From NCBI GenBank assembly GCA_039208735.1, contig JBCCQY010000004.1, positions 32,001 to 96,000 on the forward strand: 64,000 nucleotides of DNA, read 5' to 3'. The translations under genes and the position numbers were made by a program. A model generated the notes under the pieces. That model was given only the letters and a program-made list of their open reading frames with translations, did not search any database and had not been told where the DNA came from. Positions 4,393 through 30,160 of this stretch are shown here, one piece after another; the stretch's first letter is position 1, and each line of letters opens with the position of its first letter. The DNA is from Myxococcota bacterium. Its GTDB lineage: Bacteria; Myxococcota_A; UBA796; GCA-2862545.

Positions 4393-4395
4393 GAA

Positions 4396-5296: not shown

Positions 5297-5366
5297 GGGT
5301 TTTTCTTGGGTTGTGCCGCTTGTGCGATCTTGGTGAGCCTACACGATCGCGTTCAGCATGGGCTCG

Positions 5367-6296: not shown

Positions 6297-6309
6297 ACCT
6301 GGTCAGTTC

Positions 6310-6337
6310 CGAACATGGGCCTCATAGCCCATGTTCG
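6310..6337. promoter_or_regulatory. Perfect 11-bp inverted repeat between sdhB and the MerR gene (hairpin or operator)
   Basis: CGAACATGGGC-ctcata-GCCCATGTTCG; no U-tract follows on the minus strand. Confidence 0.5.
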
Positions 6338-6338
6338 C

Positions 6339-9001: not shown

Positions 9002-9012
9002 CAGTGTTCCTT

Positions 9013-9675: not shown

Positions 9676-9896
9676 CGATGACTCCTCGAACTCGTCGCCC
9701 CTATGGGCGTTCGGTGTAGCGGCTGCCTAACCCGACCCATTCGCGGCTAGACCCCGGTTTGCTCCGCCAGCCCCGCGAAGGGCCGTCAAGCAAGAACCGG
9801 GATTTTTCCCTGATACTTCACCCGTATTGAGTGAACGGCTTTTCGACCAGGTTTTGGGTTATCTGAGGGGCTAGGTTCGGCGAATCTCTCGCTCGT

Positions 9897-10730
9897 TTAG
9901 GCAGATTCGGAAACCTGTTCAGTCGCCCACGTCTTCGCGAGCGCGGGCAGGGCGACGCCGAGTGGGGCTTCGACCTTCACACGGGCCAGGCGGTCGGCAC
10001 GTGTCTGGCCGAGATTGATGATTCCAACAGGCTTGTCTTGAGAGAGTGCCCGCTTGACGAATCGATACCCAGAGAACACGGTTAGCGACGAGCCCACAAC
10101 CAACAGTCCATCTGCTTCGTCGACCCATTGGTACGCTTCATCGACCCGCTCCCGGGGGACTGTCCCGCCGAAGAAGACCATGTCGGGCATGAGAGTGCCG
10201 CCGCAATGCGCGCAATCGACAACCTGGAAATCGTCGACTGAGGTGACGTCCGCATCCCCATCCGCCAACAGGATGGGCGCGGGGTTGGCGGTGGGATTTG
10301 CTTTGGCAAACCTTGCTTGTAGTGAGGAGCGTGACGTCACACTCCCGCAGTCCAGGCACCGCACTCGTCGGAGGGCGCCGTGCAACTCTATGATGCGCTG
10401 GGATTCAGCGGCATGGTGCAGCCCGTCTACGTTTTGAGTGATGATCCCGGAGAGCTTTCCCCGGGCCTCGAGTTCAGCGAGGGTGTGGTGCGCCACGTTG
10501 GGGGTGGTGGCGGCCATCAACGGCCAGCCTCGGAACGACCGGGCCCAGTAGCGGCGGCGGGTGAGTGGGTCTTGAACGAAGGCGAGATGCTGAGCCGGAT
10601 TGCGGGCGCGTCGCGCCGTCCCTTCGCCTCGATAGTCGGGAATTCCAGAGTCGGTGCTACAACCGGCCCCCACCAGGGCCACGACCCGGCCCGGAAGGCT
10701 CCGGGCGAGTTCGATGATCGCTTGTTCCAT
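9897..10730 (-). CDS. cobB: NAD-dependent protein deacylase, Sir2 family (class II / SIRT4-like)
   Basis: GAGCSTDSGIPDYRG, RRRYWARS, ITQNVDGLH, ELHG, two CxxC pairs and GSSLTVFSGYRF. Confidence 0.92.
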   Translation of the reverse strand: MEQAIIELARSLPGRVVALVGAGCSTDSGIPDYRGEGTARRARNPAQHLAFVQDPLTRRRYWARSFRGWPLMAATTPNVAHHTLAELEARGKLSGIITQNVDGLHHAAESQRIIELHGALRRVRCLDCGSVTSRSSLQARFAKANPTANPAPILLADGDADVTSVDDFQVVDCAHCGGTLMPDMVFFGGTVPRERVDEAYQWVDEADGLLVVGSSLTVFSGYRFVKRALSQDKPVGIINLGQTRADRLARVKVEAPLGVALPALAKTWATEQVSESA

Positions 10731-14752: not shown

Positions 14753-17248
14753 TCATCGATCCTTGCGGCGGCGTCGTTTCCGACTCTTCTTGTCGTCGTC
14801 CGAGGAGCCCTCTTCCTCGGTGTCGTCGCCGTCTCCCTTGCCAAAGAGGTTCCGGAAGAATTTGCCGATCTGGGCTCCCGCACCTCCGTGAACCTCACAC
14901 TTTTGATCGGGCTGGTCGCCGGCGTAGAACAGCTCGGTGGTTGTTTCGGAGCAGCGGGCCCGCGAACGCTGGCTGCTCTCGATGCACAGCTCCACTTCAC
15001 GAAGGCCCTCGGGACGCGGGAAGACGCCCTTGATGGTGCCCGTTGCGGCCATGTACCGAGCCCAGGTGGGCAATGCGGCTCGGCCTCCGGAGAGTCCTAG
15101 GTTCTCGCCCTTGTCTTTGCCCACCCACACCGCGGTCGACAGCTCCGGAGACAGGCCCACGAACCAGGCGTCGCGGTACTCGTCGGTGGTCCCCGTCTTG
15201 CCGCCCGCGGGGTGGCCGACGCCAAAATTGGACGCGGCGCGCCCCGTGCCATTGGAGACGACGCTTTGTAGCAGGTGCATGGCCTGGGCAGCGGCTCGGG
15301 GGTCTACCACCATGCGCTCGTTGGAGCGGACTTCGAGGGCCCACTCGCCGTCCGCCGTGCGCACCGCGGTGACGATCTCGGGCCGATGGGCCACGCCAGA
15401 GTGGAAGAGGGTGTAGGCGCCCGCTACTTCGAGCGGGGAGGCTTCGAACGCGCCGAGCGCCGCTGAGGGCAGGCCGTGGGCTTTGGTGAGGCCTGTCGAC
15501 AGCAGAAACCGCTTGAGCTTGCCGAGCCCCACGCGTTCGGCAAGGTGCACCGAAGGGATGTTTCGACTGGCCTCGATCGCGCGGCGCACCGTGACTTCAC
15601 CTTCGTATTTGCCGTCGTAGTTTCGCGGGGTCCACGATTCACCGCCCAGGTCAACGGTGATGGGTTCGTCAGGTAGGCGGGTGGCGGGATTGGCTACATG
15701 ATCGGTGTAGGCCTTGGCGACGGTCAGCGGCTTCACCGTGGAGCCAATCTGGCGATAGCCGTCGACCGCGCGATTGAAGGCGCTTTCGGCATAGTCTCGT
15801 CCCCCCACCAACGCGACGACCTGGCCGGTGTCGATGCGGACCGAAGCCAGGCCCACCTGCGCTCCCCGTGCCTTGTCGTAGGCCTTTTCGAGCGCTTCCA
15901 TCGACAACGCCACGGCCTCCTCGGCCGCACGCTGATAGAGCGGGTGGATCGTCGTATACACGTCGAGACCCCGCGAGAACACGCCCTGGCCGAGTTCTTC
16001 TTCGACCCGCTCGATGGCCGCATCGACGGCGTAGGGGGCCGAACGGACTTGACTCGGGGCAAGCCCGTCGATCACGACGTCTTCACCCTTGGCCCGCTCG
16101 GCGGCGGACGACTCGAGCTTGCCCACGCTCACCATCTGGGTCAGCACCAGATCCCGACGTTCCTTGGCGACTTCAGCGTGGCGAAGCGGCGAGTAGGAGT
16201 TTGGCGAAGGGATGACGCCCACGATGGTTGCCGACTGGGCGAGGGTGAGCTTGCCTGCACTCGTGCCGAACCAGGCCTTTGCCGCCTGCTCGACGCCGTA
16301 CAGGGGCAACCCTCCCATCTGACCGAGGTAGACCTCGGACAGGTACAACTCGAGGATTTCATCCTTGGAGAGTTGCTGTTCGAGGGCGGCCGCGAAGAAG
16401 ACCTCCCGAACCTTGCGGCGTAGCGTACGGTCGTGAGAAAGAAACAGGTTTTTCGCGAGCTGCTGGGTCAGGGTGGACCCGCCCTGCGTCTTGGAACGGG
16501 TGAGGTTTGACCACAGGGCTCGGACAATCCCGGCCAAATCGATGCCGCTATGTTCCCGAAAGCGCTGGTCCTCCATCGACAACAGCGCGGGCTCAATCCA
16601 CTCCGCCATCTGGTCGAGTTTGACGGGCGTACGCTGCTGATCGGGATTGCCGATGCGGGCGAGCCGCGTGGGGGGCAGGACGATTCCGCCCCCACGTGAC
16701 ACCGAGATGACCCGCCGATCCCGGACTTCGAGTCGGCTGCGGCCCTCGGTGATGGGAGGACCCTGGCCGATGGACTGTCCCGAGAACGTCCAGATGTCGA
16801 AGCGCCCCCCCGATAGCGAGAACATGCCGGTTCCATCTCCATCGCCGGGCTTGTCGAGCACGTTGTCGACGCGTTCGTAGCCGGCGGCCAGCAGGTCCCG
16901 GGAGAGCGCCTCGGGGTCGACCGGCATGTCGGGTTCAATGGTGATGGGGGCCGACCACACGGTCGATGGCACTTCAGAGGGTGGAGAGGCGAGGTAGGCG
17001 GCGACGTCGCGCTGGGCCTGCGACCACAGCAGGAACGCGGTGAGTGAAAGGCCGGCCAGAATGCCGCCACCCCAGACGAAGAGTTCGAGGACGATGGCGC
17101 CGGCCGACGGACCGTTCGAGGGCCGCGCGAGTCGCTGGCTGTGCACGGTGTGGCGGGCTTTGGGCGGACGCGGAGGACGTTGCGAGACCTTCGGGGGGCG
17201 CGGCCGAGAGCGCCGGGAGCGCGAAGGCGGCTTTCGATTCGAGGGCAT
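14753..17248 (-). CDS. mrcB: Bifunctional transglycosylase/transpeptidase, PBP1B-like
   Basis: N-terminal TM and UB2H-like region, EDQRF, GGSTLTQQLAKN, RKVRE, SxxK (GSTVKP), SxN (SRN) and KTG. Confidence 0.9.
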   Translation of the reverse strand: MPSNRKPPSRSRRSRPRPPKVSQRPPRPPKARHTVHSQRLARPSNGPSAGAIVLELFVWGGGILAGLSLTAFLLWSQAQRDVAAYLASPPSEVPSTVWSAPITIEPDMPVDPEALSRDLLAAGYERVDNVLDKPGDGDGTGMFSLSGGRFDIWTFSGQSIGQGPPITEGRSRLEVRDRRVISVSRGGGIVLPPTRLARIGNPDQQRTPVKLDQMAEWIEPALLSMEDQRFREHSGIDLAGIVRALWSNLTRSKTQGGSTLTQQLAKNLFLSHDRTLRRKVREVFFAAALEQQLSKDEILELYLSEVYLGQMGGLPLYGVEQAAKAWFGTSAGKLTLAQSATIVGVIPSPNSYSPLRHAEVAKERRDLVLTQMVSVGKLESSAAERAKGEDVVIDGLAPSQVRSAPYAVDAAIERVEEELGQGVFSRGLDVYTTIHPLYQRAAEEAVALSMEALEKAYDKARGAQVGLASVRIDTGQVVALVGGRDYAESAFNRAVDGYRQIGSTVKPLTVAKAYTDHVANPATRLPDEPITVDLGGESWTPRNYDGKYEGEVTVRRAIEASRNIPSVHLAERVGLGKLKRFLLSTGLTKAHGLPSAALGAFEASPLEVAGAYTLFHSGVAHRPEIVTAVRTADGEWALEVRSNERMVVDPRAAAQAMHLLQSVVSNGTGRAASNFGVGHPAGGKTGTTDEYRDAWFVGLSPELSTAVWVGKDKGENLGLSGGRAALPTWARYMAATGTIKGVFPRPEGLREVELCIESSQRSRARCSETTTELFYAGDQPDQKCEVHGGAGAQIGKFFRNLFGKGDGDDTEEEGSSDDDKKSRKRRRRKDR

Positions 17249-17307
17249 GCCGGTCCTGGGGAGGCAGTCGCCGATCCCTTACCCCGCTGGCCTACTCACC
17301 AACGTGT

Positions 17308-19149
17308 TCAGGGTTGAACCTTGGCTCTCGCGGATGCTTCCAGGACCCCATGAGGAGCGAAGGAAACCCACTCCCCATCGGGCAACGCACGCAGGACCTG
17401 ATGCTCCTTGCCCCACATGTCGATTTCGAGAATGGCCGCGCCCCGGGCAGGCTGAAGAATGCGCCCTGTCTCAGCGTCGACCCAGGCGTACGGCAGCAAA
17501 TCCGATACTTCGTTCACGACTTCGCCGGTGGTTAGGTCGACGTAGATGACCGAGGCGGTGCCATTTTCAGGCACTTGGAACCGCAAGGCGGCGTATTGGC
17601 CACCGGTGATGCCCCACAATCGGTCCACGTCGATCTTGAGGTCAAGGACATCGCGGCCCTCGGCGGGAATGCCCTGGTTCACCGATACCGAAAGGTCGTA
17701 GATGCCGAGAACGCCCTGTTCATCAAGCACGATGAGGTCGGGCCGTCGGTTCACGAACGTGACGAGCCGAACCGGCACTTCCGCGAGGGGACGAGGGGCC
17801 GAAATGGCGTCTTCTCCTGTGGAGGGATCGAGAACGCGCACCTGGCCGCGTGGGGTGACCACCGCCAACCAGGTTCCCGAGCCCGACAAGGCGAAGGTGT
17901 TCACCCAATCGAGTTCGAATGCACTGTTTTCGGCTAGGTCGAACCAGCGCAACCCGCCACGGCTCCGCATACAGGCCAAGATCCTTCCGCCCACTTCCAT
18001 CTTGGGGGTGTCGGCGGTGTCGGGACCGGCCCCGAAAAGGTGGCGACCGGTGCGGGCCTCAAAGGCTTGCACCCCTTCGCCATCGTCGGACAGAGCGGCC
18101 ACCAAGCGCCCATCCCGATCGATCCGCACTTCGACGAACGGCTGCTTGACCAGGAAGGGGACGCGCTGGCGCCCCTTCGTCCACACCGCCATGCGGTCGC
18201 CGTGGACGGCCACGCGGTGGTCGCCAAATCCCGTGCAGCACAGGACGGGGCCAAGGGTTGGCTTGCTTCCTGGGCGATGGAGCACGCCATCTTCGCCCCC
18301 CACGACCACGCCACGGTGGTCCCAGAACGAGGCGTACGTGGGTTTTTTGGCCCCATGTTTCTCGGAGCCCTTGGGTTCGAGGCCGGGGAGCCGGAACGTG
18401 TGGACGGACCGGCCGGTGACGGCGGCCACCGCGTGGTCGTCGGGCGACACCGCCAACGTGAGAATGCCCGATGAACTGGAGGCCGAAAACGACTGCTGGA
18501 TGCGGCCTTCCATGGTGTCGAACAGCGTGATGCCTCGATCGCCCAGGGCCGCAATGCCTCGGCCGTTCTGGATGAAGCGTGCGGTGTGGATGTCCATGGG
18601 CAGATCTTCAAGGTCGATCTGCGCCTGCTCGAGCAGGTCGAGCAGCTTGGGCTGGCCGTTCTCGTCGACGACGAGCAGCCGGTCCCCTTCGGGGTGAAAC
18701 TCGATGGTTCGGCCGCCAAAACCCTGATAGTTCGCGAGGCGATCCCAACGTTCGAGGTCGTAAATGCGGATGATGCCATCGGCCGCGAGCGCGGCCAGGA
18801 TCGTCCCGCTCGGGTTGAACGCCAGAGCCCGCATGGCCCGAGCCCGACCGGCGGGTCCCTCTTTGAGGTCCTCAAAGGCGCAGGATCCATCGAAGGTCTT
18901 GTAGACGGCTACCGTGCCATCGTCGTCGCCGACCGCGACGAGGTCCCCGCCAATGCTGACGGCGGCGGCTCCTAAGACGGGCGCTCCCATACCGAAGATT
19001 AGCGAGGGAAAATCGTCGTCTGGGGCGGTGATCGCAACGGTACCCAAATCATCGGCGGTCACGAGGGCGCCGGACGTGGGGTCGTAAGCGGCCGCCGTCA
19101 AAGGGCCGGTGTGCGGTGAGGCGCAATAGCGGTCAACGAGCGAGGACAC
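17308..19149 (-). CDS. WD40/beta-propeller repeat protein
   Basis: Repeated units such as ALAFNPSG..LAA..DGIIRIYD and LAVSPDD. GTG start at 19149 with RBS GGAGAG. Confidence 0.8.
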   Translation of the reverse strand: MSSLVDRYCASPHTGPLTAAAYDPTSGALVTADDLGTVAITAPDDDFPSLIFGMGAPVLGAAAVSIGGDLVAVGDDDGTVAVYKTFDGSCAFEDLKEGPAGRARAMRALAFNPSGTILAALAADGIIRIYDLERWDRLANYQGFGGRTIEFHPEGDRLLVVDENGQPKLLDLLEQAQIDLEDLPMDIHTARFIQNGRGIAALGDRGITLFDTMEGRIQQSFSASSSSGILTLAVSPDDHAVAAVTGRSVHTFRLPGLEPKGSEKHGAKKPTYASFWDHRGVVVGGEDGVLHRPGSKPTLGPVLCCTGFGDHRVAVHGDRMAVWTKGRQRVPFLVKQPFVEVRIDRDGRLVAALSDDGEGVQAFEARTGRHLFGAGPDTADTPKMEVGGRILACMRSRGGLRWFDLAENSAFELDWVNTFALSGSGTWLAVVTPRGQVRVLDPSTGEDAISAPRPLAEVPVRLVTFVNRRPDLIVLDEQGVLGIYDLSVSVNQGIPAEGRDVLDLKIDVDRLWGITGGQYAALRFQVPENGTASVIYVDLTTGEVVNEVSDLLPYAWVDAETGRILQPARGAAILEIDMWGKEHQVLRALPDGEWVSFAPHGVLEASARAKVQP

Positions 19150-19193
19150 GGTGCTCTCCGCGGAGAAGCCGCAGGAAGGCCGTGTCTTAACCG

Positions 19194-19898
19194 CTACTCG
19201 GCCGGAGGTTCGGCTCGTCCTGAAACGTCCACCATGTCGATGCCCTGGTATTCCTGGGAATAGGCCACGAATCTCCACCCATCGCACGACAGCCCATCGT
19301 CTCGGTACAACGCAAGACCTGGCTCGAGGCGTGCCCATCGGCACCACGGGGCCTCATTGACGAAGCCCTGCGCTTCGGACAGCACGTTTATGCCACGTGG
19401 AGCGTCGACGATAGCGAGCACATGGCCCGTGCTGGCCGCGCGCGCGGAGTGTGGGAGGGGCCCGAAGATCCCAGACGTGTCGCCAACCGTGCCGAGCGAC
19501 CACAACAACAGCGCCGTCGCATCGAGCGGGGGCGGGGTTTCGGCGTACATCACGGGCAGCCCAAAGGCGATCCGAGACCCCTCGGCCCGGAGTTCGAGAG
19601 GGGCCGGGCCCACCCCTTGGGTGTCGGACAACGGTGGAGGCCCTTCGATCGCCATCGCGTACCCAAAGAGGCGAGGTTCGATGTCGGCGGACTGCCACTG
19701 GACGCCCATCTCGTCGTCCGAGATCACCAACCAGGCGACGCCCCCGCGAAACGTGGCCGGGTCTTCGTCTCCATCGAGCAGCGTGCTGTCGAGCCGGCCC
19801 GACAGCGCGAGAAACGGGCCGAAGTCATCGGCCGAACGAATGAGGGCTTGGTCACACCCCGTGGCGGTCAGCCACAAACCCAACCAGGCGGCACGCAT
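19194..19898 (-). CDS. Hypothetical lipoprotein, last gene of the ECF-caspase operon
   Basis: Signal MRAAWLGLWLTATGC; abuts the upstream stop codon. Confidence 0.75.
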   Translation of the reverse strand: MRAAWLGLWLTATGCDQALIRSADDFGPFLALSGRLDSTLLDGDEDPATFRGGVAWLVISDDEMGVQWQSADIEPRLFGYAMAIEGPPPLSDTQGVGPAPLELRAEGSRIAFGLPVMYAETPPPLDATALLLWSLGTVGDTSGIFGPLPHSARAASTGHVLAIVDAPRGINVLSEAQGFVNEAPWCRWARLEPGLALYRDDGLSCDGWRFVAYSQEYQGIDMVDVSGRAEPPAE

Positions 19899-20645
19899 TC
19901 AATCGACCTCCGTTTCGACCGCGGATTGGAGGTTGCTTAGGAACGTGTCGTAGTCGGGGTGTTCGGGTTCGATGATCCAAGGCACCTCGGCCGAAGCAGG
20001 CGGCATCATGCCGTCGAGCCACTGGTCGACCCGCAGACCCAGGCGCACCCGAGGGTCGGGGCCATCACCAAGCACCAAGCGTACGGGCTCCGAAACCAAC
20101 GACAGTGCGTCGGGCACCCGGAACTCGACCGTCCGCGACAGGGACGTCTCGTCGGTCGCGACGCAGGCGGTGGCCCGGGCGGCAAACACCGCCTCAGGTC
20201 CGACACTCGCGCCCACGAGTTCGAGGATCGAGGAGGGATAGTCCGCCAATTCGAGGTCCAGCACGATCTCGTCGTCGCTCGTGGCCGGCCCGACAAGGTC
20301 GAGCTGCCGATCGAGCGGCACCGTGAACGTGCGCTCGGTTTCGCCGGTGACGGTCAGCCGGAACTCCGTCAGCTGGAGGTCGACCGCCGTGAAATTTGCA
20401 CTTCGGAGGGGTAGCACGGCAACGTCACCATCCGGGTCGTCGTTGCTGTCCTGGTCGTCGTCGTCGTCGTCGTCCTGGTCGTCATCCCCGTTGCCCTCGG
20501 CGCAGGGATCGACCCCGGGATCTTCGGGTGGCTCGGCGATCACCACGCGAACGGCGAGGCCACCCCGACGAATCGGGGGCGTGAGGTCTGAGCCATCGTC
20601 GCCGGTGCAGGCCACGAAGAGTCCCCAGAAAAGCCACACCCTCAC
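19899..20645 (-). CDS. Hypothetical lipoprotein with an Asp-rich insert and beta-rich domain
   Basis: Signal MRVWLFWGLFVAC; GDDDQDDDDDDDQD tract; GTGA overlap with the caspase gene. Confidence 0.75.
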   Translation of the reverse strand: MRVWLFWGLFVACTGDDGSDLTPPIRRGGLAVRVVIAEPPEDPGVDPCAEGNGDDDQDDDDDDDQDSNDDPDGDVAVLPLRSANFTAVDLQLTEFRLTVTGETERTFTVPLDRQLDLVGPATSDDEIVLDLELADYPSSILELVGASVGPEAVFAARATACVATDETSLSRTVEFRVPDALSLVSEPVRLVLGDGPDPRVRLGLRVDQWLDGMMPPASAEVPWIIEPEHPDYDTFLSNLQSAVETEVD

Positions 20646-22180
20646 CGGTCACCTCGTTGAAAAGAGAGGCCCGCCCGCACCTGAGCGGCGGGTTGAACGA
20701 CGGGATTGCGCGTTCCGTACACCGTGAGGCCTCCGCCGGCGAAGGCCAAGAGCCCCACCGGGCCGGTGAGCGACCACTCGGCCGTCCATCCTAGCAATCC
20801 CCTCCCCAACGGCACCGTGACGGTGCGCGCAGCCGTTTGGTCGCCATACCAGCGTCCCCAGTCGGGGTCGGCGGCTCGTGCGGCGGTCTGGCGGAGGAAC
20901 CCTGCGCCAAAATCCAGCGTGGGGCCTGTCCGCACGCGGTGGCCCCGCACGTCGAGGCCCCACTCCCCATGCACCAGGCCCCAGGTGTCGGTGCCCACCG
21001 CGCGGGTGATGCCAAGCCCCATCTGGCCCCCTTCGACCCCCAACGCGAGGCGATGGCCCCGGCCTGTCGACCGCCGCAGCGACGCGAAGGCGCCAAATCC
21101 ATCGGGCCGCCCTGGTGCGAAGCCAAGCCCCCCACTGGGCCCAACGGCAAACCGCGTGGGCTTAGGATCGAGGAGGCCGCCCTTCGTGCGAACGCCGGGG
21201 TGCGCATAGAGGCGACGGGCCGAGATGATGGCGTATCCTTTGTTCGGAACTACGACTTCGGTCATGGCGGCCCGGCGACCTCGCTCCAGACGGACCAACT
21301 GGTATCGCCCAGGATCGAGGGCCAGGGTTCGTCCGGCTCCGGCGGGGACTTCGGCGGCCACGGCCTTCGCATCGACATCGATCACGAGCACCGGCTTCTC
21401 CACCGGGCCGGTCACCGACAAGCCGCTGGGAGCGTCGACGAGATTGGCGAGCACCAATTCTCCGAGGGACCCCGCCCACCGGGGTCGTTGCACGACGCCA
21501 AGGCCGGCGGCGGTGCGCTCGGTCTGACGCTGGACAAACCCGTACAGTTCGTGAAGCGTGACCTGCCCGTCGCGGTTGTCGTCTGCCGCGCCACGGGCTC
21601 CCGAGACAAAGAAGTGAGTAAAGAGAGCTCCCCGGCGCTGCTCGACTTCGAACGCGAGTTCTTCGGCCCCCGTGCTCGCGATCCAGGCTTCATCGGCGGG
21701 AGGGTCATAGGCAGGGCTTTCGCCGGGAAGCGCGGGCGCATCGGAGACCGCGACCAGCGTAGCCCCTTTCGATCGGAGCATCGTGCCGGCCTGACAGGCG
21801 TCGACGATGAAGACCCGCCGGTCTGCGGGAACAACGCGCGCAGCCGTCTTGAGGGAAGGGATGGGGAGAACGTCTCCCGCGAGGTGGAGTCCCCGTGACG
21901 AAGCGTGGCCCGTGTAGTACACGACCAGCTCCGTCGTACGGCCCTCACGGCGCAAAGCCGAAGCACGGAGCACGGCCTCGCCAAGCGCATCGGTTACCGC
22001 ATCCACGTCCGCCTCGGGGACGCGAAAGAGGTGTTCCGAGGAGACGTCTCCCAAGGCCCGCAACACGTCGGCCACCCGGTCGCCGTCGTCGTCGGCGTAC
22101 CGCAGAGGCACATCGGTGGTCAGGCCCTCGTTGGCGGAAATCACCACCGCGAGCCGAACCAGGGCGGCGGGCAGGCTCAC
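20642..22180 (-). CDS. Caspase-like (C14) protease with PEGA-like domain and C-terminal beta-barrel-like region (ActC-like)
   Basis: RLAVV..N..PLRYA, YYTGHA (catalytic His), IVDAC (catalytic Cys), FTHFFVSGARGAAD.N.DGQVTL.ELY, then amphipathic beta strands. GTG start overlaps the upstream TGA. Confidence 0.88.
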   Translation of the reverse strand: MSLPAALVRLAVVISANEGLTTDVPLRYADDDGDRVADVLRALGDVSSEHLFRVPEADVDAVTDALGEAVLRASALRREGRTTELVVYYTGHASSRGLHLAGDVLPIPSLKTAARVVPADRRVFIVDACQAGTMLRSKGATLVAVSDAPALPGESPAYDPPADEAWIASTGAEELAFEVEQRRGALFTHFFVSGARGAADDNRDGQVTLHELYGFVQRQTERTAAGLGVVQRPRWAGSLGELVLANLVDAPSGLSVTGPVEKPVLVIDVDAKAVAAEVPAGAGRTLALDPGRYQLVRLERGRRAAMTEVVVPNKGYAIISARRLYAHPGVRTKGGLLDPKPTRFAVGPSGGLGFAPGRPDGFGAFASLRRSTGRGHRLALGVEGGQMGLGITRAVGTDTWGLVHGEWGLDVRGHRVRTGPTLDFGAGFLRQTAARAADPDWGRWYGDQTAARTVTVPLGRGLLGWTAEWSLTGPVGLLAFAGGGLTVYGTRNPVVQPAAQVRAGLSFQRGDR

Positions 22181-22815
22181 GGGCGCCTCGTAACCTCGAC
22201 GGCGAAGGACCGGCCGGGATCGAGGTCGGTGTGGCGTCGTCCGAGCAGGGCCTCCTCCGAGGAAGGTTGGTCGGTGAACTGGGCCATGAGCCACTCCTCG
22301 CCGTCGTAGTCGTCGAGGGCAATCGTCAGCTTGAAGCGTTCGCCAGGGTGGACCGGCCGGCCGACCATCAAGGCGGAGACCGAGCCGTCCTCCTGTCGGG
22401 TCCAGACGTCGAGGAACCCTTTTCCGGGGCTGCGAACCACGAGGTTGAGTCGTTCGGTGGCGTTGGCCACGTCGACCTGCAGGCTCCCCATGGGCAGGTA
22501 GCGATCCGGGGTGGGGGAGGGACGGGTCGCGAGGAAGACGAGGAACAACGACGCGGCCAGAGCGAGGGCAGAGGCCCATGGCCACGCACGCTGCACCCAA
22601 GAAGAAGAAGGGGGGTGTGGGCGCAGCGGCGTGGCATGAGCGTTGAAAAAGGCACGGGCATCCGCGAGTTCCTGGTCGGCCTCGGCCAGAGGGCCCGTGC
22701 GGGACGCTTCGACGCGGGCCCGGTCGAGGCCGTCGGAAATGGCGCCCAGCTCGAGCAGATCGAGGTCGATGTCATCCGGGGTGTCTCCCGGAAGAAGGCT
22801 CAGTTGTGGACTCAT
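22177..22815 (-). CDS. Membrane-anchored anti-sigma factor (ActD-like)
   Basis: Short cytoplasmic N-terminus, one TM (ALALAASLFLVFL) and a beta-rich periplasmic domain; ATGA overlap with the sigma gene. Confidence 0.75.
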   Translation of the reverse strand: MSPQLSLLPGDTPDDIDLDLLELGAISDGLDRARVEASRTGPLAEADQELADARAFFNAHATPLRPHPPSSSWVQRAWPWASALALAASLFLVFLATRPSPTPDRYLPMGSLQVDVANATERLNLVVRSPGKGFLDVWTRQEDGSVSALMVGRPVHPGERFKLTIALDDYDGEEWLMAQFTDQPSSEEALLGRRHTDLDPGRSFAVEVTRRP

Positions 22816-23306
22816 GCGGATTCCAGCTTGGTTCGGAGTCGGGATTCGAATTCGGAGCGGGCTCGGCCCACCGTACGGACGGAGATACCCAGGACTTCCG
22901 CAGCGCGTTGATTGGAAAGGCCCTGGAGCCAGGTGAGGAGCACGACCTCTCCCGTGCGTTCATCGACCTCGTTCAACACACGGTGCACCAGGTCGCGATC
23001 GGCATGGGCGCCCTCGGGATGGTGACCGGGTAGCCCTCGAAGGTAGTCGCCATGGGCCACCCGAATCCGCGCCCGATTGCGCCGATTGCGGAGCAGCCAC
23101 AGGCATCGACGCGTCGCGGTCTGGTAGAGCCAGGCCAACGCTTCGGGCAGGCTGCGAATCTCAAAGCCCACCTCGATGGCACGCATGAACGTCCATTGGG
23201 TCACGTCCAACGCCTCCTGGCGGTCGCCGATCATCTGGATGGAGCGGCGGAGAACCAAGGGCCCTGCGCGCTCGTACAGCTCGTCGATGGTGAGGTCAGG
23301 GGTCAT
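22812..23306 (-). CDS. ECF RNA polymerase sigma-70 factor
   Basis: Region 2 (ELYE..GP.V.RR..EALDVTQ.TF..AWLYQTATRRCL) and region 4 (GLSNQRAAEVLGISVRTVGR). Start is ATG 23306 or GTG 23309. Confidence 0.9.
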   Translation of the reverse strand: MTPDLTIDELYERAGPLVLRRSIQMIGDRQEALDVTQWTFMRAIEVGFEIRSLPEALAWLYQTATRRCLWLLRNRRNRARIRVAHGDYLRGLPGHHPEGAHADRDLVHRVLNEVDERTGEVVLLTWLQGLSNQRAAEVLGISVRTVGRARSEFESRLRTKLESA

Positions 23307-23313
23307 CACGGGT

Positions 23314-23343
23314 CTCAATGCACGGCGCGCCCAGAGTCGGACA
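23314..23343 (-). promoter_or_regulatory. Putative ECF-dependent promoter of the sigma operon (autoregulatory)
   Basis: TGTCCGACTCTGGGCGCGCCGTGCATTGAG, ending 4 nt before the GTG; matches the divergent copy. Confidence 0.7.
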
Positions 23344-23395
23344 CGATTCTCATCGGGACCTTCAACACTACCAAATTGAGAAATCCGACTCGGGT

Positions 23396-23425
23396 TGTCC
23401 GGCTTTTCGAAGCCCGCGCATTGAG
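23396..23425 (+). promoter_or_regulatory. Putative ECF-dependent promoter of the Asp-rich lipoprotein gene
   Basis: TGTCCGGCTTTTCGAAGCCCGCGCATTGAG; same TGTCCG-N16-GCATTGAG layout. Confidence 0.7.
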
Positions 23426-23456
23426 CATGTCGAACGAATGTAAAGGAGACCCGTTC

Positions 23457-24104
23457 ATGCGCCTGTCCACGATTCTTGCCGTGCTCGGTCTGTCCCTGGT
23501 CGCTTGTGAGGATGTCGAGTTGCCGCAGAACGAGCTGCCCGAAGGCGTCTCGCTGCGTGACACTGACAACGACGGCATTCCCGACCTCCAGGACGATGAC
23601 GACGACAACGACGGCATCTCGGATGACCTCGACGATGATGACGATGGCGATGGCATCGACGACGACGACGAGCAGGATGCCGACGGTGACGGCCTCGACG
23701 ACGACGACGACGCCGATGACGACAACGACGGCATCCCCGACGACGAAGATGAAGACGATGACGGCGACGGCATCGATGATGTAGATGAGCCGGATGCTGA
23801 TGGCGATGGCATCGACGATGACCACGACGGCGATGACGACAACGACGGCATCCCCGACGACGAAGACGACGACGATGATGGCGACGGCATCCTGGACGTC
23901 GATGAGCCCGACTCAGATGGCGATGGCATCGACGACGACCACGATGGCGACGATGACAACGATGGCATCAACGATGATGAAGACGATGACGACGACGGCG
24001 ACGGCATCCCCGATTCCGACGAAGGGGACGATGACGGCGATGATGATGATGACGACGACGACGACGACGACGATGACGATCGCGGCGGCTCTTCGGAGGG
24101 TTGA
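23457..24104 (+). CDS. Asp-rich lipoprotein with thrombospondin type 3-like Ca-binding repeats
   Basis: RBS AAAGGAG; lipobox MRLSTILAVLGLSLVAC; 12 x DxDxDGxxDxxDx units and a poly-Asp tail. Confidence 0.88.
   Translation: MRLSTILAVLGLSLVACEDVELPQNELPEGVSLRDTDNDGIPDLQDDDDDNDGISDDLDDDDDGDGIDDDDEQDADGDGLDDDDDADDDNDGIPDDEDEDDDGDGIDDVDEPDADGDGIDDDHDGDDDNDGIPDDEDDDDDGDGILDVDEPDSDGDGIDDDHDGDDDNDGINDDEDDDDDGDGIPDSDEGDDDGDDDDDDDDDDDDDDRGGSSEG
23559..24026 (+). repeat. Coding tandem repeat: 12 x 39 bp with 117-bp higher-order period
   Basis: Units DDDNDGIPDDEDx / DDDGDGIxDVDEP / DxDGDGIDDDHDG recur in triplets. Confidence 0.85.
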
Positions 24105-24164
24105 TCGCGTTTGGGGGCGTCCCGGCTCGGCGCGGTAAGAGGCTCCGTGGAGGATCTCGGTCCC

Positions 24165-25046
24165 GTGACGCGCAACGACGCCCCCGTGATGGGCATTGAC
24201 ATCGGTGGAAGTGGCGTCCGGGGGGCGATCGTGACCCCGGACGGCGAGGTGGGCGAGCTGACACGGGTGGCCTTGCAAAACCGCGAGGTCGAGACAGTGT
24301 TGGACGCCATTCGCGAAGTGGTGGGAGACCGACGGCCCCGTGCGATTGGCATCGGCATGCCTGGATTCGTGCGGGCCGCCACGGTCATCGCCTCACCGAA
24401 CTTCCCGAGTTGGCACGAAGTAGACCTGCAAGCCCTGGTTCAAACCCGCTGTGACACGCCCGCGATCGTCATGAATGACGCGAATGCGGCGACCTTCGGA
24501 GCGTACGAGCGGCTTGGCGATGGGCGAGACCTGCTCCTGCTCACCCTAGGCACCGGGGTGGGCGGAGGCGTCGTGAGTCAGCGACGGCTGATCACCGGCC
24601 GCCGAGGGACCGCGGCTGAAGTGGGTCACATCTTTGCCGGTGGGGATGCGCTCTGTGGATGTGGAGGCCGGGGATGCCTCGAGACCTGGTGTTCCACGCG
24701 GGGGCTTGCGCGACAGGCGGCGGAGTGTGGTCATCCCGTGCCCGACGGCCAAAGCGTGGTCGAAGCGGCCGACCGCGGAGAAGCGTGGGCCAAACAGGTG
24801 CTCCACGCGACTGGTGAGGCGCTGGGGCGGGGTCTAGCCTCGCTCACCAACGTGTTTGCGCCGGAGCACATCGTGCTCGCCGGAGGACTTGCGCAGGCCG
24901 AACGTTGGTTGCACGAGCCAGCGCACACGTATTGGCGAGCCCACGCGATTGGGGCAAATGTGGAGGGTGTAACTTGGCGATGGTGGGGAAGGGCTGATGA
25001 CCTTGCCATTCGCGGTTCAGCCTCTGCGGCCCGAGCGATAGGATGA
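24165..25046 (+). CDS. ROK-family sugar kinase (glucokinase-like)
   Basis: GIDIGGS, MNDANAA, LTLGTGVGGG and EVGH..CGCGGRGCLE. Start uncertain (24111-24189). Confidence 0.9.
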   Translation: MTRNDAPVMGIDIGGSGVRGAIVTPDGEVGELTRVALQNREVETVLDAIREVVGDRRPRAIGIGMPGFVRAATVIASPNFPSWHEVDLQALVQTRCDTPAIVMNDANAATFGAYERLGDGRDLLLLTLGTGVGGGVVSQRRLITGRRGTAAEVGHIFAGGDALCGCGGRGCLETWCSTRGLARQAAECGHPVPDGQSVVEAADRGEAWAKQVLHATGEALGRGLASLTNVFAPEHIVLAGGLAQAERWLHEPAHTYWRAHAIGANVEGVTWRWWGRADDLAIRGSASAARAIG

Positions 25047-26926
25047 CGCGCGTAGCTTTACTCTGGCACTTTCATCAACCGGACTACCGTGACCCTCAAA
25101 CGGGCATTCCGGTCATGCCCTGGACGCGCCTCCACGCGTTGCGTGGATATCGAGATCTGCTGGTCGAAGCTGTCGAATACGACGTGTCGATGACCATCAA
25201 CGTGGTGCCGTCGTTGCTCGACCAGCTGTTGCACTACGCAAACGGGGGAAGCGACACCCACCTCGACCTGACCCGACGCGACGCGGCTTCGTTGTCGCCT
25301 GAAGAAGCCGAGCAAGTGGTGCAGGCGCTACCGACCGGGAATCTCGCGATGACCGAGGCGTGGCCTGACTACGCTCGGCTGCGACGACGCCTTCGCCGAG
25401 GGGCTCCGTACTCGGTGCAAGATCTGCTCGACGTGCAGGTCTGGGGAACGCTGGCGTGGTTTGGGGCGACAGCTCGACGCGATTTCTTGGTGCTTCGCGA
25501 GTTGTCCGACAAGGGACAGGGATTTTCGGAGGCCGACAAGGCCGCCATGCTCGCGGTACAAGACACGATCGTGCGCGCGCTTCCAGACCGGCTCGGCATG
25601 GTCATGGCGGCTCGGGGACCTGCGCTGTCGACCTCGCCTTACTTCCACCCCATTCTGCCGCTGCTCGTCGACGTCCGCCATGCACGACGCAACTTGCCCC
25701 ACCTGCCCGACGACCTTCGCTTCGCCTACCCCGAAGATGCCCGTCGGCAGCTGACCATGGCCCGAGAGCGTCTCACCGAGCTGACCGGGGCTCCGCCAGC
25801 GGGGTTGTGGCCGTCGGAAGGTTCGGTGTCCCCCGAGGTTGTAGGGCTGGCCGGAGAAGTGGGTTTTCGCTGGCTCGTCACCGATCAGGGGGTCCTGGAA
25901 CGGTCGGAGCGTCAGGGGCATTCTGACCAGAAGGGCGGCTGGGATCTTGGCAATGGCATGACCGGGTTCTTTCGCAACACCCACCTCTCTGACGGGATCG
26001 GCTTTCGGTATGCCCACATGGACCCCCATGAGGCGGTGGCCCAGTTCCTCGCCGGCGTGCGAAACGAGGGGCCTGGGGTCGTCACGGTGGCTCTCGATGG
26101 CGAAAACCCATGGGAGACCTACACCGATGCGGGCCGCGCGTTCCGGGCTCGCCTCTATGAGGCTCTCGAGGGAGACATTCGCGCGGTGACGTTCGACGAG
26201 GCCCATGCGGAGCCCCCGGTCGGTACGGTGTCGCGCATCCACACCGGATCGTGGATCGGGGCCAACTTTCAGATCTGGATTGGTCATCCCACGGACCGTG
26301 AGGCTTTTGGGGCGTTGGCAGCGGCCCGCGACGCGGCCGAACAAGCCCCTGAAGCGTTGCGCGAAGCTGCGATGCAGCACCTGCTGCCCGCCGAGGGGTC
26401 GGACTGGAACTGGTGGTACGGCGACGAGTTCCACACCGAATACAACCCGGCGTTTGACGCGCTGTATCGAAGCCATTTGCGAGCCGCCTGGCGGGCGCTT
26501 GGCCAGGAGCCGCCCGAGTCGCTCGATCGGCCCCTGGGGCGTTCGGGGGCGCCCACGGACCGGTCTCCGCTGGGGTTCATCGACGTCACCTGGGACAACG
26601 CATTCTCTACGTTTGCGTGGCGGCGGTCGGGCGCGTTGCGGTCGTGGGGCGGCACGATGGCCCAAGGAGCTGCGGTGACCGAGCTTCGCTACGGGTGGAC
26701 CGTGGATGGAGCCCTCTGGGTGCGGGTGAGCGCGGGTCCCGATCTGCGGCTCTCCGCACCCGATGACCCCGAGGTGCGGGTGCAGGACGGGATCACGGTG
26801 GCTCGATTTGACGGCGGTGCACCCCGCCCCTTTCAATGGGCGGGTCCTGACGGCGTCAGGTGGCCGGCCGAGCCCATCACCCTGGCCCTTCCGGCGCACC
26901 CGACCCTTTCGTGGTGGGACGTGTAG
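25043..26926 (+). CDS. Glycoside hydrolase family 57 (amylopullulanase-like)
   Basis: WHFHQP, PYFHPILPLL, GLWPSEGSVS, ALDGENPWE and AEGSDWNWWYG. Confidence 0.93.
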   Translation: MTRVALLWHFHQPDYRDPQTGIPVMPWTRLHALRGYRDLLVEAVEYDVSMTINVVPSLLDQLLHYANGGSDTHLDLTRRDAASLSPEEAEQVVQALPTGNLAMTEAWPDYARLRRRLRRGAPYSVQDLLDVQVWGTLAWFGATARRDFLVLRELSDKGQGFSEADKAAMLAVQDTIVRALPDRLGMVMAARGPALSTSPYFHPILPLLVDVRHARRNLPHLPDDLRFAYPEDARRQLTMARERLTELTGAPPAGLWPSEGSVSPEVVGLAGEVGFRWLVTDQGVLERSERQGHSDQKGGWDLGNGMTGFFRNTHLSDGIGFRYAHMDPHEAVAQFLAGVRNEGPGVVTVALDGENPWETYTDAGRAFRARLYEALEGDIRAVTFDEAHAEPPVGTVSRIHTGSWIGANFQIWIGHPTDREAFGALAAARDAAEQAPEALREAAMQHLLPAEGSDWNWWYGDEFHTEYNPAFDALYRSHLRAAWRALGQEPPESLDRPLGRSGAPTDRSPLGFIDVTWDNAFSTFAWRRSGALRSWGGTMAQGAAVTELRYGWTVDGALWVRVSAGPDLRLSAPDDPEVRVQDGITVARFDGGAPRPFQWAGPDGVRWPAEPITLALPAHPTLSWWDV

Positions 26927-26934
26927 GAGGTCAA

Positions 26935-28059
26935 ATGGGGTGGCTGCTTTGGCTCGGGGCGTGTGCCACCGTGCCTCCCACGCCTGCCGCAGCGCCGCCC
27001 CCGGCTCCCGGCAGTCCCGCTGACGCACTAGATGCGTTCTATCAGAACTATTCCGTCACATTGCCCGAGGTTCCGCCGAGTCCGGCGTGGCCCGACGCGG
27101 TCGACACCCTGTTGTTCGCTTCGTGCTTGCAGCCCTACAAGCCAGCGCCCATTCTCGAGGCGATGCAGGCCACCAAGGCCGATCTGTTCGTGATGCTCGG
27201 CGACAATGTGTATGGCGACGCTCGCGGCGGCGACATGCGCCTACCTGAACTTCGGGAAGCGTACGCCACGCTCGCGGCCCACGAAGAGTTTGCGAACCTG
27301 GTCGGTGCCATCCCCGTCGTCGCCACGTGGGACGACCATGACTACGGCATGAACGACGCGGGAGCCTCGTTTTCGGCTCGCCGATTTGCCGAGCGCATCT
27401 TCGAGACCTTTTGGCGCGTGCCTAACGACGACCCGCGACGGCAGCGCGAAGGGGTCTACGGCGTGCAGACCTTCGGAGCCGAAGGCCGCCGGGTGCAGCT
27501 CGTGTTGCTCGACCTGCGTTCGTTCAAAGACAACTTCGACCCTTCCCCAACCCCCAACCAGCCGGGCACCGAACGCTACGTGCCGTCCGATGACGCCACG
27601 CGGACGTTGCTCGGCCCGACCCAATGGGCGTGGTTGGCCGAGACCCTGGCGGCCCCCGCCGATCTGCGCGTGGTGATTTCGTCGCTGCAGGTGCATGCAG
27701 ATGGACACGGCTACGAGCGTTGGGGACTGTTTCCGGCCGAGCGAGACCGCTTCTACGAGGCGCTGGCCGCGCGAGCCGGAGGCGAGGTGGTGTTGGTCAG
27801 CGGCGACCGTCATCGGGCGGGGATCTACGCTCGTCCCGACCTTGCGGGGGGCCCGTACCCCGAGCTGACCACGTCTTCGCTCAACCTGTCTTTCGGGGGG
27901 AACGAAGAGGCCGGACCGCACCGGTTGGGGCCTACGTTCGTCGATGAGAATTTCGGCACCATGACCATCGACTGGACGGGGCGCACGGTGGGATTGGCGG
28001 TTCACGATGCCAAAGGCAACGTGGTGCTCGACCATTCCGCGACCCTGGGCACTCCGTGA
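26935..28059 (+). CDS. phoD: Alkaline phosphatase D family lipoprotein
   Basis: FASC, LGDNVYGD, TWDDHDYG.ND, LLGPTQWAWL and SGDRH. RBS AGGAGG; signal MGWLLWLGAC. Confidence 0.88.
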   Translation: MGWLLWLGACATVPPTPAAAPPPAPGSPADALDAFYQNYSVTLPEVPPSPAWPDAVDTLLFASCLQPYKPAPILEAMQATKADLFVMLGDNVYGDARGGDMRLPELREAYATLAAHEEFANLVGAIPVVATWDDHDYGMNDAGASFSARRFAERIFETFWRVPNDDPRRQREGVYGVQTFGAEGRRVQLVLLDLRSFKDNFDPSPTPNQPGTERYVPSDDATRTLLGPTQWAWLAETLAAPADLRVVISSLQVHADGHGYERWGLFPAERDRFYEALAARAGGEVVLVSGDRHRAGIYARPDLAGGPYPELTTSSLNLSFGGNEEAGPHRLGPTFVDENFGTMTIDWTGRTVGLAVHDAKGNVVLDHSATLGTP

Positions 28060-28478
28060 GCGGACCCTCGACCGATGCGTTCACCCATCGGCAGATCATT
28101 GCGCTTTCGCAGGTCGATGCAGCAGGGATCCTGTACTTTGCTCGGTTGTTCGAGATTTGCCACCTCGCCTTCGAGCATTGGTTGATCGACGAGGGCCTTC
28201 CGCTCCTGGCGGGCTTGGGCGAAAGTGATGAGCTGATGCCCATCGTGCATGCCGAGGCGGACTATCGGTCCCCGTTGCGACTCGGCCATGTGATCGACGT
28301 TGCGGTTCAGGTGGAAGCCACCGGCCAATCCTCGATCACCTTTGGATTTCGCGTGACCACCCAGGGGCGACTTGCTGCGGTGGCGCGTCACGTTCATGTG
28401 GCCATCGACAAGGCGGACTTCCGATCGCGTCCCTTGCCCGACGCCATCTTGGGCCTTGCCAAGGGAGAACAGCCGTGA
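28056..28478 (+). CDS. Acyl-CoA thioesterase (hot-dog fold, 4HBT/DHNA-CoA-like)
   Basis: VDAAGILYFAR..EICH.AFE and PIVHAEADYRSPLRLG. Confidence 0.88.
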   Translation: MSGPSTDAFTHRQIIALSQVDAAGILYFARLFEICHLAFEHWLIDEGLPLLAGLGESDELMPIVHAEADYRSPLRLGHVIDVAVQVEATGQSSITFGFRVTTQGRLAAVARHVHVAIDKADFRSRPLPDAILGLAKGEQP

Positions 28479-30160
28479 GTGGATCGTTTTGCCTCGTGCT
28501 CCACGGGCACCTGCCGTGGGTGCTCCACCACGGTCGCTGGCCCCACGGAGAGGACTGGTTGTTCGAGGCGGTCAGCGAGACCTGGCTGCCGATGATCGAG
28601 CTGCTCGATCAATGCCGGGAGGAGGGCCTCCTGCCGCGGTTTACCATCGGGCTCACGCCCATCCTCCTCGAACAGTTGGCGTCGCCCCGACTTCGGGAAG
28701 GCCTTCCGCCGTGGTTGGAAGAGCAGGCGGAACGCGGCCGGCGCGACCGTGCGGAGTTCGAGTCCGAGGGACAGGGCCACATGGCCTGGCTGGCGACCCG
28801 ATGGACAGAGCGGTTTGAACGCCTCCTCGCGCGTTTTGAACAGGCGGATCGCGACATCATCGGCGAGATGCGGCGAGCCTCCGACGAGGGGCTCATCGAG
28901 CTGCTGACGTCGAACGCCACCCATGGCTACCACCCGCTGCTCACCCATGATGCGTGTGGGCGAGCCCAGGTGCGAGCGGGTGTGGCCACCTCGAATCGCC
29001 ACCTGGGGAAGGCTCCGCGAGGCATGTGGCTGCCTGAGTGCGCGTACCGGCCGCCTCGAGGATTTTGGCCGCCCGCGATTCACGGCGATGAGCGGTGGGC
29101 CCAGGGGACGGGGTCGATGGTGGCGGCCGAGGGCATTCGGTACTTCGTTGTCGACTCCCACCTGCTGCACCACGCGACGCCCCAGGCCGTCCTCGTCGGG
29201 CAACGGGCCCAGGCGGTAGGGCCCGAGCAAGCGGGGTGGGACCACCTGCGTGGCTGGAACCACGTGCTCCAACCCCATCGCCTCGTCGAGCAGGAGCGCT
29301 TGCTTGATGTCAGCGTGTTTGCTCGATCACCCAGCGTCAGCGAACAGGTTTGGAGCGGAGCGGTGGGCTACCCCGGCGACGGCCGCTACCTTGAGTTTCA
29401 CAAGCGCCGCGGTCCTCGAGGGCTTCAGTATTGGAAGATCACAGGGCCCAATCGCGATCTGGGAGACAAGGACCTCTACTACCCCGACGACATTGGCTCC
29501 GTTACCCATGCCCAGGCCCAGCACTTTGCCGCGTTGATCCGAGATCAGCTCGGTGGCTTCGAATACCATTCCGGACGCCCAGGCGTGGTCACGGCCCCGT
29601 TTGATGCTGAGTTGTTTGGCCACTGGTGGCATGAGGGGCTGGACTTCTTGCTCGAGGTCGTGCGGGCGATTCACCACGATCCAAGCATCGAGACGGCCAC
29701 GCTCGGTCAGGTGCTGGAGCAGGATCCGCCCGACAAAGCGGTGTCGTTGCCTGAAGGGTCCTGGGGGGAAGAGGGCGACCATCGCGTCTGGCAGAACGAC
29801 GAGTTGCATTTCTACTGGCAGGTCGAGGTCCGAGCCGAAGATCGATTCATGGACCTCTGGCATCGCGCGCCATGGCGGGACGTCGAACCCGTACGGGAGC
29901 TTCTCGAAGAAGCAGGTCGCCAGTTGCTGTTGCTTCAGGCATCGGACTGGCCGTTCGTGATCTCGACCGGAGGAGCTGTGGATTACGGGCTTCGACGCAT
30001 TTTCCACCATGCCTCATTGTTCGATGATCTCTGCAATGGTGTGGAGGATCGCATCGCGCATCCCGAACGAGCGGCCGACCCCGTCGTCGAGGCGGCGCTA
30101 CAGACCTCGCGGCTGCGCGACGCCGTCTTCCCCGACCTGGAGTTGGCCTGGTGGAGCTAA
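28475..30160 (+). CDS. GH57 1,4-alpha-glucan branching enzyme (DUF1957 domain)
   Basis: LHGHLPWV, WLFEA..ETWLP, ATHGYHPL, GMWLPECAY, PFDAELFGHWW.EG and LLQASDWPF. Confidence 0.93.
   Translation: MSGSFCLVLHGHLPWVLHHGRWPHGEDWLFEAVSETWLPMIELLDQCREEGLLPRFTIGLTPILLEQLASPRLREGLPPWLEEQAERGRRDRAEFESEGQGHMAWLATRWTERFERLLARFEQADRDIIGEMRRASDEGLIELLTSNATHGYHPLLTHDACGRAQVRAGVATSNRHLGKAPRGMWLPECAYRPPRGFWPPAIHGDERWAQGTGSMVAAEGIRYFVVDSHLLHHATPQAVLVGQRAQAVGPEQAGWDHLRGWNHVLQPHRLVEQERLLDVSVFARSPSVSEQVWSGAVGYPGDGRYLEFHKRRGPRGLQYWKITGPNRDLGDKDLYYPDDIGSVTHAQAQHFAALIRDQLGGFEYHSGRPGVVTAPFDAELFGHWWHEGLDFLLEVVRAIHHDPSIETATLGQVLEQDPPDKAVSLPEGSWGEEGDHRVWQNDELHFYWQVEVRAEDRFMDLWHRAPWRDVEPVRELLEEAGRQLLLLQASDWPFVISTGGAVDYGLRRIFHHASLFDDLCNGVEDRIAHPERAADPVVEAALQTSRLRDAVFPDLELAWWS

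Follow-up and report, generated by a model that had tools for sequence, protein, structure and literature searches.

The question that this locus raises is whether a caspase-like protease may serve as the link by which an event at the outer membrane frees a sigma factor. Myxobacteria hold many caspase homologues of unknown function, which have long been guessed to be cell-death factors. In this study, a stretch of 64,000 nucleotides from a Myxococcota bacterium (assembly GCA_039208735.1, contig JBCCQY010000004.1, positions 32,001 to 96,000 of the forward strand; hereafter the window) was investigated at a group of six genes, comprising an operon for a sigma factor of the extracytoplasmic function (ECF) type, an anti-sigma-like protein, a C14 (caspase-family) protease and two lipoproteins, as well as a divergent gene for an acidic lipoprotein (Table 1). 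The original prediction held that the protease is tethered to the outer membrane and cuts the anti-sigma protein. All six genes were found where it had placed them, with operon junctions reading ATGA, GTGA and GTGA, followed by a zero gap. The module is real, conserved and testable, and constitutes a variant of regulated anti-sigma proteolysis. We consider the mechanism set out below probable for the family with Lys or Arg at its cut sites, and for the window copy we lean slightly towards it.

With reference to conservation, 84 distinct caspase loci were gathered, including the window and nine paralogs from its own genome, and 67 of them had at least 1.5 kb upstream. The census of gene neighbourhoods, which had been suggested as a check, bore out the pairing, as the order sigma, anti-sigma, caspase was kept in 62 of these 67 caspase-picked loci. 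The five exceptions are a copy in the same genome that is reordered to caspase, sigma, anti-sigma (G000 C1), a locus with a distant caspase (C207), C235, L017 and L042; in the last, at 5800-6500, the anti-sigma and caspase homologies overlap and the N-terminal part of the caspase is missing, owing to deletion or misassembly. Among the records of the module are Myxococcota, Fibrobacterota and Spirochaetota, and the anti-sigma profile matched in 89 of 151 genomes sampled from the phylum, though the weakest of these matches may be to anti-sigma proteins of another kind. In the reverse test, 40 anti-sigma matches were hand-picked (20 strong, 20 medium or weak), leaving 38 after two duplicates were removed; a caspase adjoins the anti-sigma in 35 of the 38, and the motif described below is present in 31 of these. 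Seven further modules occur in the same genome (G000 C1:100401-103300, C14, C20, C30, C50, C55 and C77), all with short signal peptides and differing C-terminal regions. The records L001 and L006 are labelled Enterobacteriaceae, yet they fall among Myxococcota and L001 matches the same-genus L044, so that the labels look wrong.

The protease and the anti-sigma share a short motif, consisting of Lys, Arg or Met followed by Gly, at three candidate cleavage sites. In the 71 complete triplets, the residue before the putative cut (P1) in the anti-sigma is Lys in 50, Met in 14 and Arg in 7, and this column lies a median of 14 residues beyond the transmembrane helix. The first site in the protease falls nine residues past the catalytic Cys, in a loop (residues 136-154) with a predicted local distance difference test (pLDDT) value below 50, and the site before the barrel has Lys or Arg and then Gly in 66 of 68 loci, with Gly in all 68 (three truncated loci were left out). 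Per position, the motif has a background of 0.015, and no column of this kind occurs in the sigma alignment that served as a control (best 0.13). The P1 residue co-varies, across the aligned sequences, between the protease's own site and its cognate anti-sigma. Arg occupies the caspase's own site in 11 of 101 rows, with at least four origins on a tree built without the motif, and the partner anti-sigmas of those 11 rows have Arg in nine, Met in two and Lys in none, while the Lys-Lys combination makes up 74 of the 101 rows overall. Cognate motif similarity was 13.3 against 10.9 when shuffled, and none of 5000 shuffles reached it; kinship inflates this comparison, and the claim of co-variation therefore rests on the tree.

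The protease model, built from 36 sequences, reached a pLDDT of 88.5 and a predicted template-modelling (TM) score of 0.84, and the caspase fold is complete according to Foldseek and VIA, with Z of about 20 to metacaspase 4 and caspase-7 over residues 4-249; phmmer with the caspase core against the PDB gave no match. The His/Cys dyad was rightly called intact, as all 67 aligned sequences have both H92 and C129. Pfam gives C14 only, with neither TPR nor CHAT, and the model contains no TPR helices. The predicted S1 pocket has three positions, D32, D127 and E178, that hold an acidic residue in every one of the 71 triplets; the first two align with metacaspase aspartates, while E178 is matched by position only. 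The P1 anchors D365, D462 and E500 of MALT1 (PMC4626109) match these three by position, and non-animal C14 enzymes cleave after Arg or Lys (PMC5756287). The acidic pocket thus appears suited to a basic P1 residue, Arg or Lys. The region formerly described as PEGA-like proved a resemblance only, being a predicted beta-sandwich with no PEGA match at E<=1. The barrel-like C-terminus is upheld by the model, which gives eight amphipathic strands with long outer loops and short inner turns, as in OmpA (9fzc_A, TM score by target 0.62). A PDPxWGxWYG motif, specific to the window's subfamily, is conserved in a barrel loop. Because long loops and short turns alternate as in the topology of OmpA, the protease domain is predicted to be periplasmic and this loop to lie outside.

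On the substrate side, the window anti-sigma was modelled from 67 sequences and has, as predicted earlier, a single transmembrane helix. Pfam gave no match for it, and among 36 anti-sigma homologs DUF4384 matched in 12 and zf-HC2 in four (E<=0.01, mostly under the cut-off); the zinc ligands are absent from the window's subfamily of anti-sigmas. The predicted helical bundle and single transmembrane helix, with the gene directly after that of the sigma factor in an ATGA overlap, fit the class I (ASD/ZAS) membrane type. The ECF assignment of the sigma factor also held, with Sigma2 and Sigma4 regions only and no sigma3, and its 164 residues fall within the ECF range of about 160-200.

The route that we infer, covering sensing, the cleavages, the action of RseP on a sigma-binding anti-sigma and the control of the target genes, would run as follows. 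A signal would be sensed at an outer loop of the barrel or by the lipoproteins; the protease, hung from the outer membrane into the periplasm, would cut itself at K138-G139 and K333-G334; the freed protease would diffuse to the inner membrane and make the site-1 cut in the anti-sigma at M109-G110; RseP would then act and release the sigma factor, which would induce its own operon and the acidic lipoprotein. Given the width of the periplasm, a barrel-tethered domain probably could not reach the inner membrane. Since the anti-sigma site lies in the juxtamembrane linker, a median of 14 residues from the membrane helix, self-release at K333-G334 is probably needed first. An RseP-type M50 gene is present in the genome, on C116, with a long insert between its two M50 halves. 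The earlier idea of a caspase that cleaves the anti-sigma is thus favoured for the family by synteny, by the predicted periplasmic-side barrel protease and by the co-varying motif, with the corrections that release probably comes first and that RseP is probably still needed, and that in the window copy the signal peptide is missing and the anti-sigma carries Met at P1. The distance problem would also be solved if the protease met the anti-sigma only when insertion of its barrel fails, so that the module reports stress in envelope assembly. We regard this as very improbable, as the release site would be unnecessary, and the eight paralogous modules of one genome with their differing C-terminal regions, together with the conserved outer loop, fit ligands better.

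Several observations on the motif, the substrate and the export of the protease weigh against the proposed self-release and site-1 cleavage. The motif counts overstate independence, since kin share motifs, and, of the three anti-sigma loci that have no caspase next to them, two keep Lys-Gly. L122 (G000 C9:12752-13141), L121 and L127 are anti-sigma homologs with Lys-Gly and no caspase in the 3.7-kb stretch that was covered, and they are possibly served in trans. The second pocket Cys of metacaspases is Ala here, for which PMC5756287 advises caution, and MALT1 is strictly Arg-specific and activated without cleavage (PMC3304489). A fourth conserved pair in the caspase, R196-G197, present in 96% of rows, ends a helix, so that a conserved Lys/Arg-Gly can be structural and its conservation alone is no proof of a cut. 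This point, along with the predicted autoregulation of the operon, would suit a distinctly unlikely alternative in which the caspase is the output: the sigma factor would induce a protease of the surface or periplasm with other substrates, the anti-sigma would be cut by general proteases or freed without proteolysis, and any cut by the caspase would be only feedback. ECF operons usually contain their own targets, which counts in its favour; it is opposed by the co-variation of P1 between the protease linker and the cognate anti-sigma across at least four lineages, and by the nearly one-to-one synteny, in which each paralog has a single pair.

The substrate of the window's subfamily raises a further difficulty, in that 14 of 17 loci have Met at P1 of the anti-sigma, and no other neutral residue occurs there, while the S1 pocket stays acidic. 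The window anti-sigma moreover has Leu in place of the usual Arg at P3 and, next to its two nearest relatives, is missing about 14 residues. As the caspase's own sites remain Lys or Arg in most subfamily loci, it may be supposed that the self-processed protease binds without cutting, treating the anti-sigma as a pseudo-substrate by docking on its Met-Gly loop and beta-sandwich, and passes on a stoichiometric conformational signal or exposes the protein to a general protease. We hold this to be unlikely: in L011 and L052 Met also occupies the first of the caspase's own sites, and the anti-sigma Csx30 is cleaved around M427 (PMC10028731), so that Met may be cut, perhaps slowly. Under the preferred site-1 cleavage, Met at P1 would make the subfamily anti-sigma a slow substrate.

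Another difficulty for the window copy, which the original prediction had overlooked, is that the caspase starts only eight residues before strand beta1, at a GTG preceded by GAGG, and has no signal peptide. Among the subfamily, 18 of 40 proteins have at most 12 residues before beta1, against none of 54 outside it, where all have at least 14 residues with a hydrophobic stretch; gene callers supplied many of these starts, and seven of 17 were checked on DNA. On a quick tree, with one truncated protein left out, the loss of the signal takes at fewest six changes, of which at least three are forced by well-supported branches. A terminal Phe, Trp or Tyr occurs in none of 15 subfamily proteins against 25 of 47 outside, and the window copy, whose last barrel strand ends at Phe507 and is followed by five more residues, lacks it as well. 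Owing to the short lead and the absence of a terminal aromatic residue, delivery of this copy to the outer membrane is hard to account for; a signal-less protease would need an unusual export route, and, with Met at the anti-sigma P1 in addition, both export and cleavage are uncertain here. The copy may instead be decaying or cytoplasmic, the loss of the signal having trapped the protease away from the periplasmic site, so that it is a relic or works differently; the missing signal and terminal aromatic, the Met at P1 and the P3 change and deletion in the anti-sigma would all agree with this. Such decay is quite improbable, given that signal loss recurs with dyad, pocket and motifs intact, and that members with and without a signal have equally amphipathic barrel strands, with 65-71% identity in the barrel among close relatives that lack the signal.

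Various other explanations for the missing signal peptide were considered, and most were rejected. An assembly error was dismissed, as a contig from one sequencing run (X1), possibly of the source sample, spans 19100-23743 with zero differences and zero gaps, and the signal is missing from the three nearest relatives too. An upstream start does not supply one, since the upstream open frame is not hydrophobic, and no Shine-Dalgarno sequence was consistently present that would let translation begin internally at the Met109 codon. That anti-sigma and caspase might be fused through a frameshift or read-through was discarded, because the GTG of the window caspase has its GAGG and the required frame differs within one clade; the junction is a -4 overlap in the window, a +10 gap with its own GGAGG in L001, and -11 in L005, L006 and L055. 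No fused anti-sigma-caspase was present among 112 homologs of 281-896 residues, longer proteins not having been searched. Genome-wide loss of signals seems improbable too: among 27 TonB-dependent receptors and two POTRA proteins, most have short hydrophobic N-termini, judged by eye with a few starts ambiguous. Signal peptides in this lineage are very short, frequently with no basic n-region; some TonB-dependent receptors have 10-11 residues, and only seven to eight residues precede the lipoprotein Cys in L008, L009 and L054. As regards a relaxed SecY, a further candidate explanation, the protein (L090:1390-2727, minus strand) is ordinary except for Ala at the position of E. coli Ile187, a pore-ring residue. 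In L004, the caspase apparently begins at position 5995 with a CTG that overlaps the anti-sigma stop (CTGA). How a barrel protein that otherwise looks intact could lose its signal peptide repeatedly is a puzzle of protein export in its own right.

The proposed output is approached through the promoters. The common motif formerly noticed for the operon and the divergent gene is borne out by two mirrored copies with identical spacing, ranked by a matrix that was trained on nine sigma-side sites of relatives and scanned over 18.8 million positions. The operon motif recurs upstream of sigma in nine of 15 related subfamily loci, and a mirrored second site on the opposite strand was found in eight of 16; the training pattern was picked after viewing the window, and it is the mirrored sites that constitute an independent test. 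In seven of the eight loci the mirrored site faces a gene for an acidic, secreted protein that has 8-24 Dx[DN]xDG motifs, and in the eighth locus the contig ends too early. The genes at the same position in L002 and L004 match TSP3_bac (PF18884) with E of 6e-66 and 2e-55, and the window acidic lipoprotein, which is low-complexity, has no Pfam match, PF18884 included. Repeats of the Dx[DN]xDG type are calcium-binding. The acidic lipoprotein is likely, judging from its repeats, a calcium-binding target gene, and co-induction of such a protein points, speculatively, to a response to calcium or to cations. The caspase itself has a DxDxDG-type loop at residues 197-206 (window 21563-21592), which is conserved in the family, gives a weak EF-hand_5 match (E 0.15) and is a possible calcium site.

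The two operon lipoproteins and the acidic gene are features of the window's subfamily. Lipoprotein 1 has a predicted MbnP/DUF4382-like beta-sandwich with an acidic insert (Atlas TM score 0.61 to an MbnP-domain cluster, a lead only), and most loci of the subfamily have such a gene next after the caspase; lipoprotein 2 belongs to a Myxococcota family with a homolog in 14 of 17 subfamily loci and gave no structural match. Neither has a Pfam family. A wider interpretation, which we find doubtful, would make the module a class of receptor-proteases, in which one polypeptide senses outside by means of a small barrel, releases itself into the periplasm and acts as a dedicated site-1 protease through a shared Lys/Arg-Gly code. 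In the subfamily, the protease would then be exported without a signal peptide by translocon hand-over, through translational coupling to the anti-sigma gene, and Met at P1 would set a slow, high-threshold response that induces the calcium-binding lipoprotein.

Table 1. Features of the module in the window; strands are those of the window, and residues are numbered within each protein.
Feature	Window positions	Strand	Size or residues	Basis and remarks
ECF sigma factor	22812..23306	-	164 aa	Pfam Sigma70_r2 and r4_2, TIGR02937, all above cut-off
Anti-sigma-like protein	22177..22815	-	212 aa	Model, pLDDT 87.6; one transmembrane helix
Three-helix N-terminal domain of anti-sigma			15-60	Model
Transmembrane helix of anti-sigma, then unstructured linker			79-97	Model
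DUF4384-like beta-sandwich of anti-sigma, after the linker			113-207	Model
Candidate site-1 cut in anti-sigma linker	22486..22491	-	M109-G110	Motif, Gly next in 70 of 71 triplets
C14 protease	20642..22180	-	512 aa	PF00656 (E 5e-7, above cut-off) and model
Caspase domain of protease			9-248	Model and PF00656; H92, C129; acidic S1 residues D32, D127, E178
Candidate self-cleavage site	21764..21769	-	K138-G139	Motif in 71 of 71 triplets
Ig-like domain of protease			249-333	Predicted beta-sandwich
Candidate release site, Ig-like domain/barrel junction	21179..21184	-	K333-G334	Motif
Predicted OmpA-like outer-membrane barrel, 8 strands	20657..21157	-	342-508	Model, OmpA match
Lipoprotein 1	19899..20645	-	248 aa	Lipobox-like Cys13
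Lipoprotein 2	19194..19898	-	234 aa	Lipobox-like Cys15
Predicted operon ECF promoter	23317..23343	-	TGTCCGAC-N12-GTGCATT	Rank 2 in genome scan
Predicted mirrored ECF promoter of acidic lipoprotein	23396..23422	+	TGTCCGGC-N12-GCGCATT	Rank 6 in genome scan
Divergent acidic lipoprotein	23457..24104	+	215 aa	54% Asp+Glu; 18 Dx[DN]xDG motifs

Around the module, the left flank (window 14753-19150, minus strand) holds a WD40 propeller protein, identified by scanning, and a penicillin-binding-protein-like gene, and the right flank (24111-30160, plus strand) holds a ROK kinase, also scanned, along with apparent glycoside hydrolase and alkaline-phosphatase genes. The WD40 gene beyond lipoprotein 2 is common only to L001 among the loci compared, and was not counted as part of the module. 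The guanine-cytosine content is 58-59% at window 52001-64000 and 60-63% at 1-10000, against about 65% in the middle, and no plasmid match was found.

Comparatively, pairings of this kind have been recorded before. Four of the five metacaspases of Myxococcus xanthus lie in operons with sigma-70 factors (Asplund-Samuelsson 2012, PMC3501461), and such operons were also listed for Anaeromyxobacter, Haliangium, Sorangium, Ralstonia and Fibrobacter; no mechanism is given in the available text. These operons, including those of M. xanthus DK1622, are very likely the same module, as they have the same pairing, several copies per genome and the same taxa, and the anti-sigma, barrel, substrate and mechanism are not named in that part of the paper. 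We found no literature that describes a caspase-barrel module or its motif, within a coverage that leaves out most subscription papers. The available part of the supplement to the ECF classification of Casas-Pastor 2021 has DUF4384 once (ECF25) and no caspase or C14, so that the context may still be described elsewhere in it, and neither 'caspase' nor 'ECF' occurs in the main text of a 2026 M. xanthus Tn-seq preprint, whose supplements may hold phenotypes. Control by proteases has been proposed for other ECF contexts (PMC8999054, PMC8195603).

The earlier statement that a mechanism of this type is undescribed was too strong, since the protease Csx29 cuts the anti-sigma Csx30 and the CHAT domain of DdvA has been proposed as a site-1 protease. 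In the Craspase system (Csx29, Csx30 and CASP-sigma), a caspase-fold protease likewise cuts an anti-sigma and relieves an ECF sigma factor, with the cut around a Met (PMC10028731), and one group of Csx30 ends in a DUF4384 C-terminal domain (bioRxiv 2022.08.17.504292), to which the sandwich here was likened. Craspase differs in being a cytoplasmic TPR-CHAT protein that is RNA-switched via Cas7-11, for which the available text describes neither a transmembrane helix nor a barrel, whereas in the present module the protease belongs to C14 and is predicted to carry an outer-membrane barrel, and the anti-sigma has a transmembrane helix. DdvA/DdvS of M. xanthus (PMC11506125) resembles the module in its ECF factor and single-helix membrane anti-sigma, with a periplasmic caspase-fold domain proposed for site 1 and a juxtamembrane linker, and the action of RseP was demonstrated on truncated forms of DdvA. 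It differs in that the TPR-CHAT part lies within the anti-sigma itself, the active site is incomplete, self-cleavage is not demonstrated and no outer-membrane component belongs to the system as described. MALT1 and the metacaspases share the full caspase fold followed by an Ig-like domain, the acidic S1 positions and a basic P1 (PMC3304489, PMC4626109, PMC5756287); MALT1 is activated by dimerisation and accepts Arg only, whereas the module here has mostly Lys, lacks the second metacaspase pocket Cys and ends in a barrel.

The module provides myxobacterial caspases with a predicted substrate, three exact candidate cleavage sites and a promoter read-out, so that the matter can be settled by point mutants in a tractable host, and orthogonal sets of protease, anti-sigma and promoter could serve as synthetic parts. 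If true, the mechanism would be an envelope-crossing route in many Myxococcota, as well as in Fibrobacterota and Spirochaetota, that needs neither TonB nor DegS. In the DegS/RseA/RseP pathway, proteolysis at site 1 is followed by that at site 2, and site 1 is cut by a serine protease that is either soluble or of the inner membrane, while in TonB-dependent cell-surface signalling the receptor is a 22-strand TonB-dependent transporter upstream of the anti-sigma. Compared with both of these systems, the receptor and the protease would here be one polypeptide.

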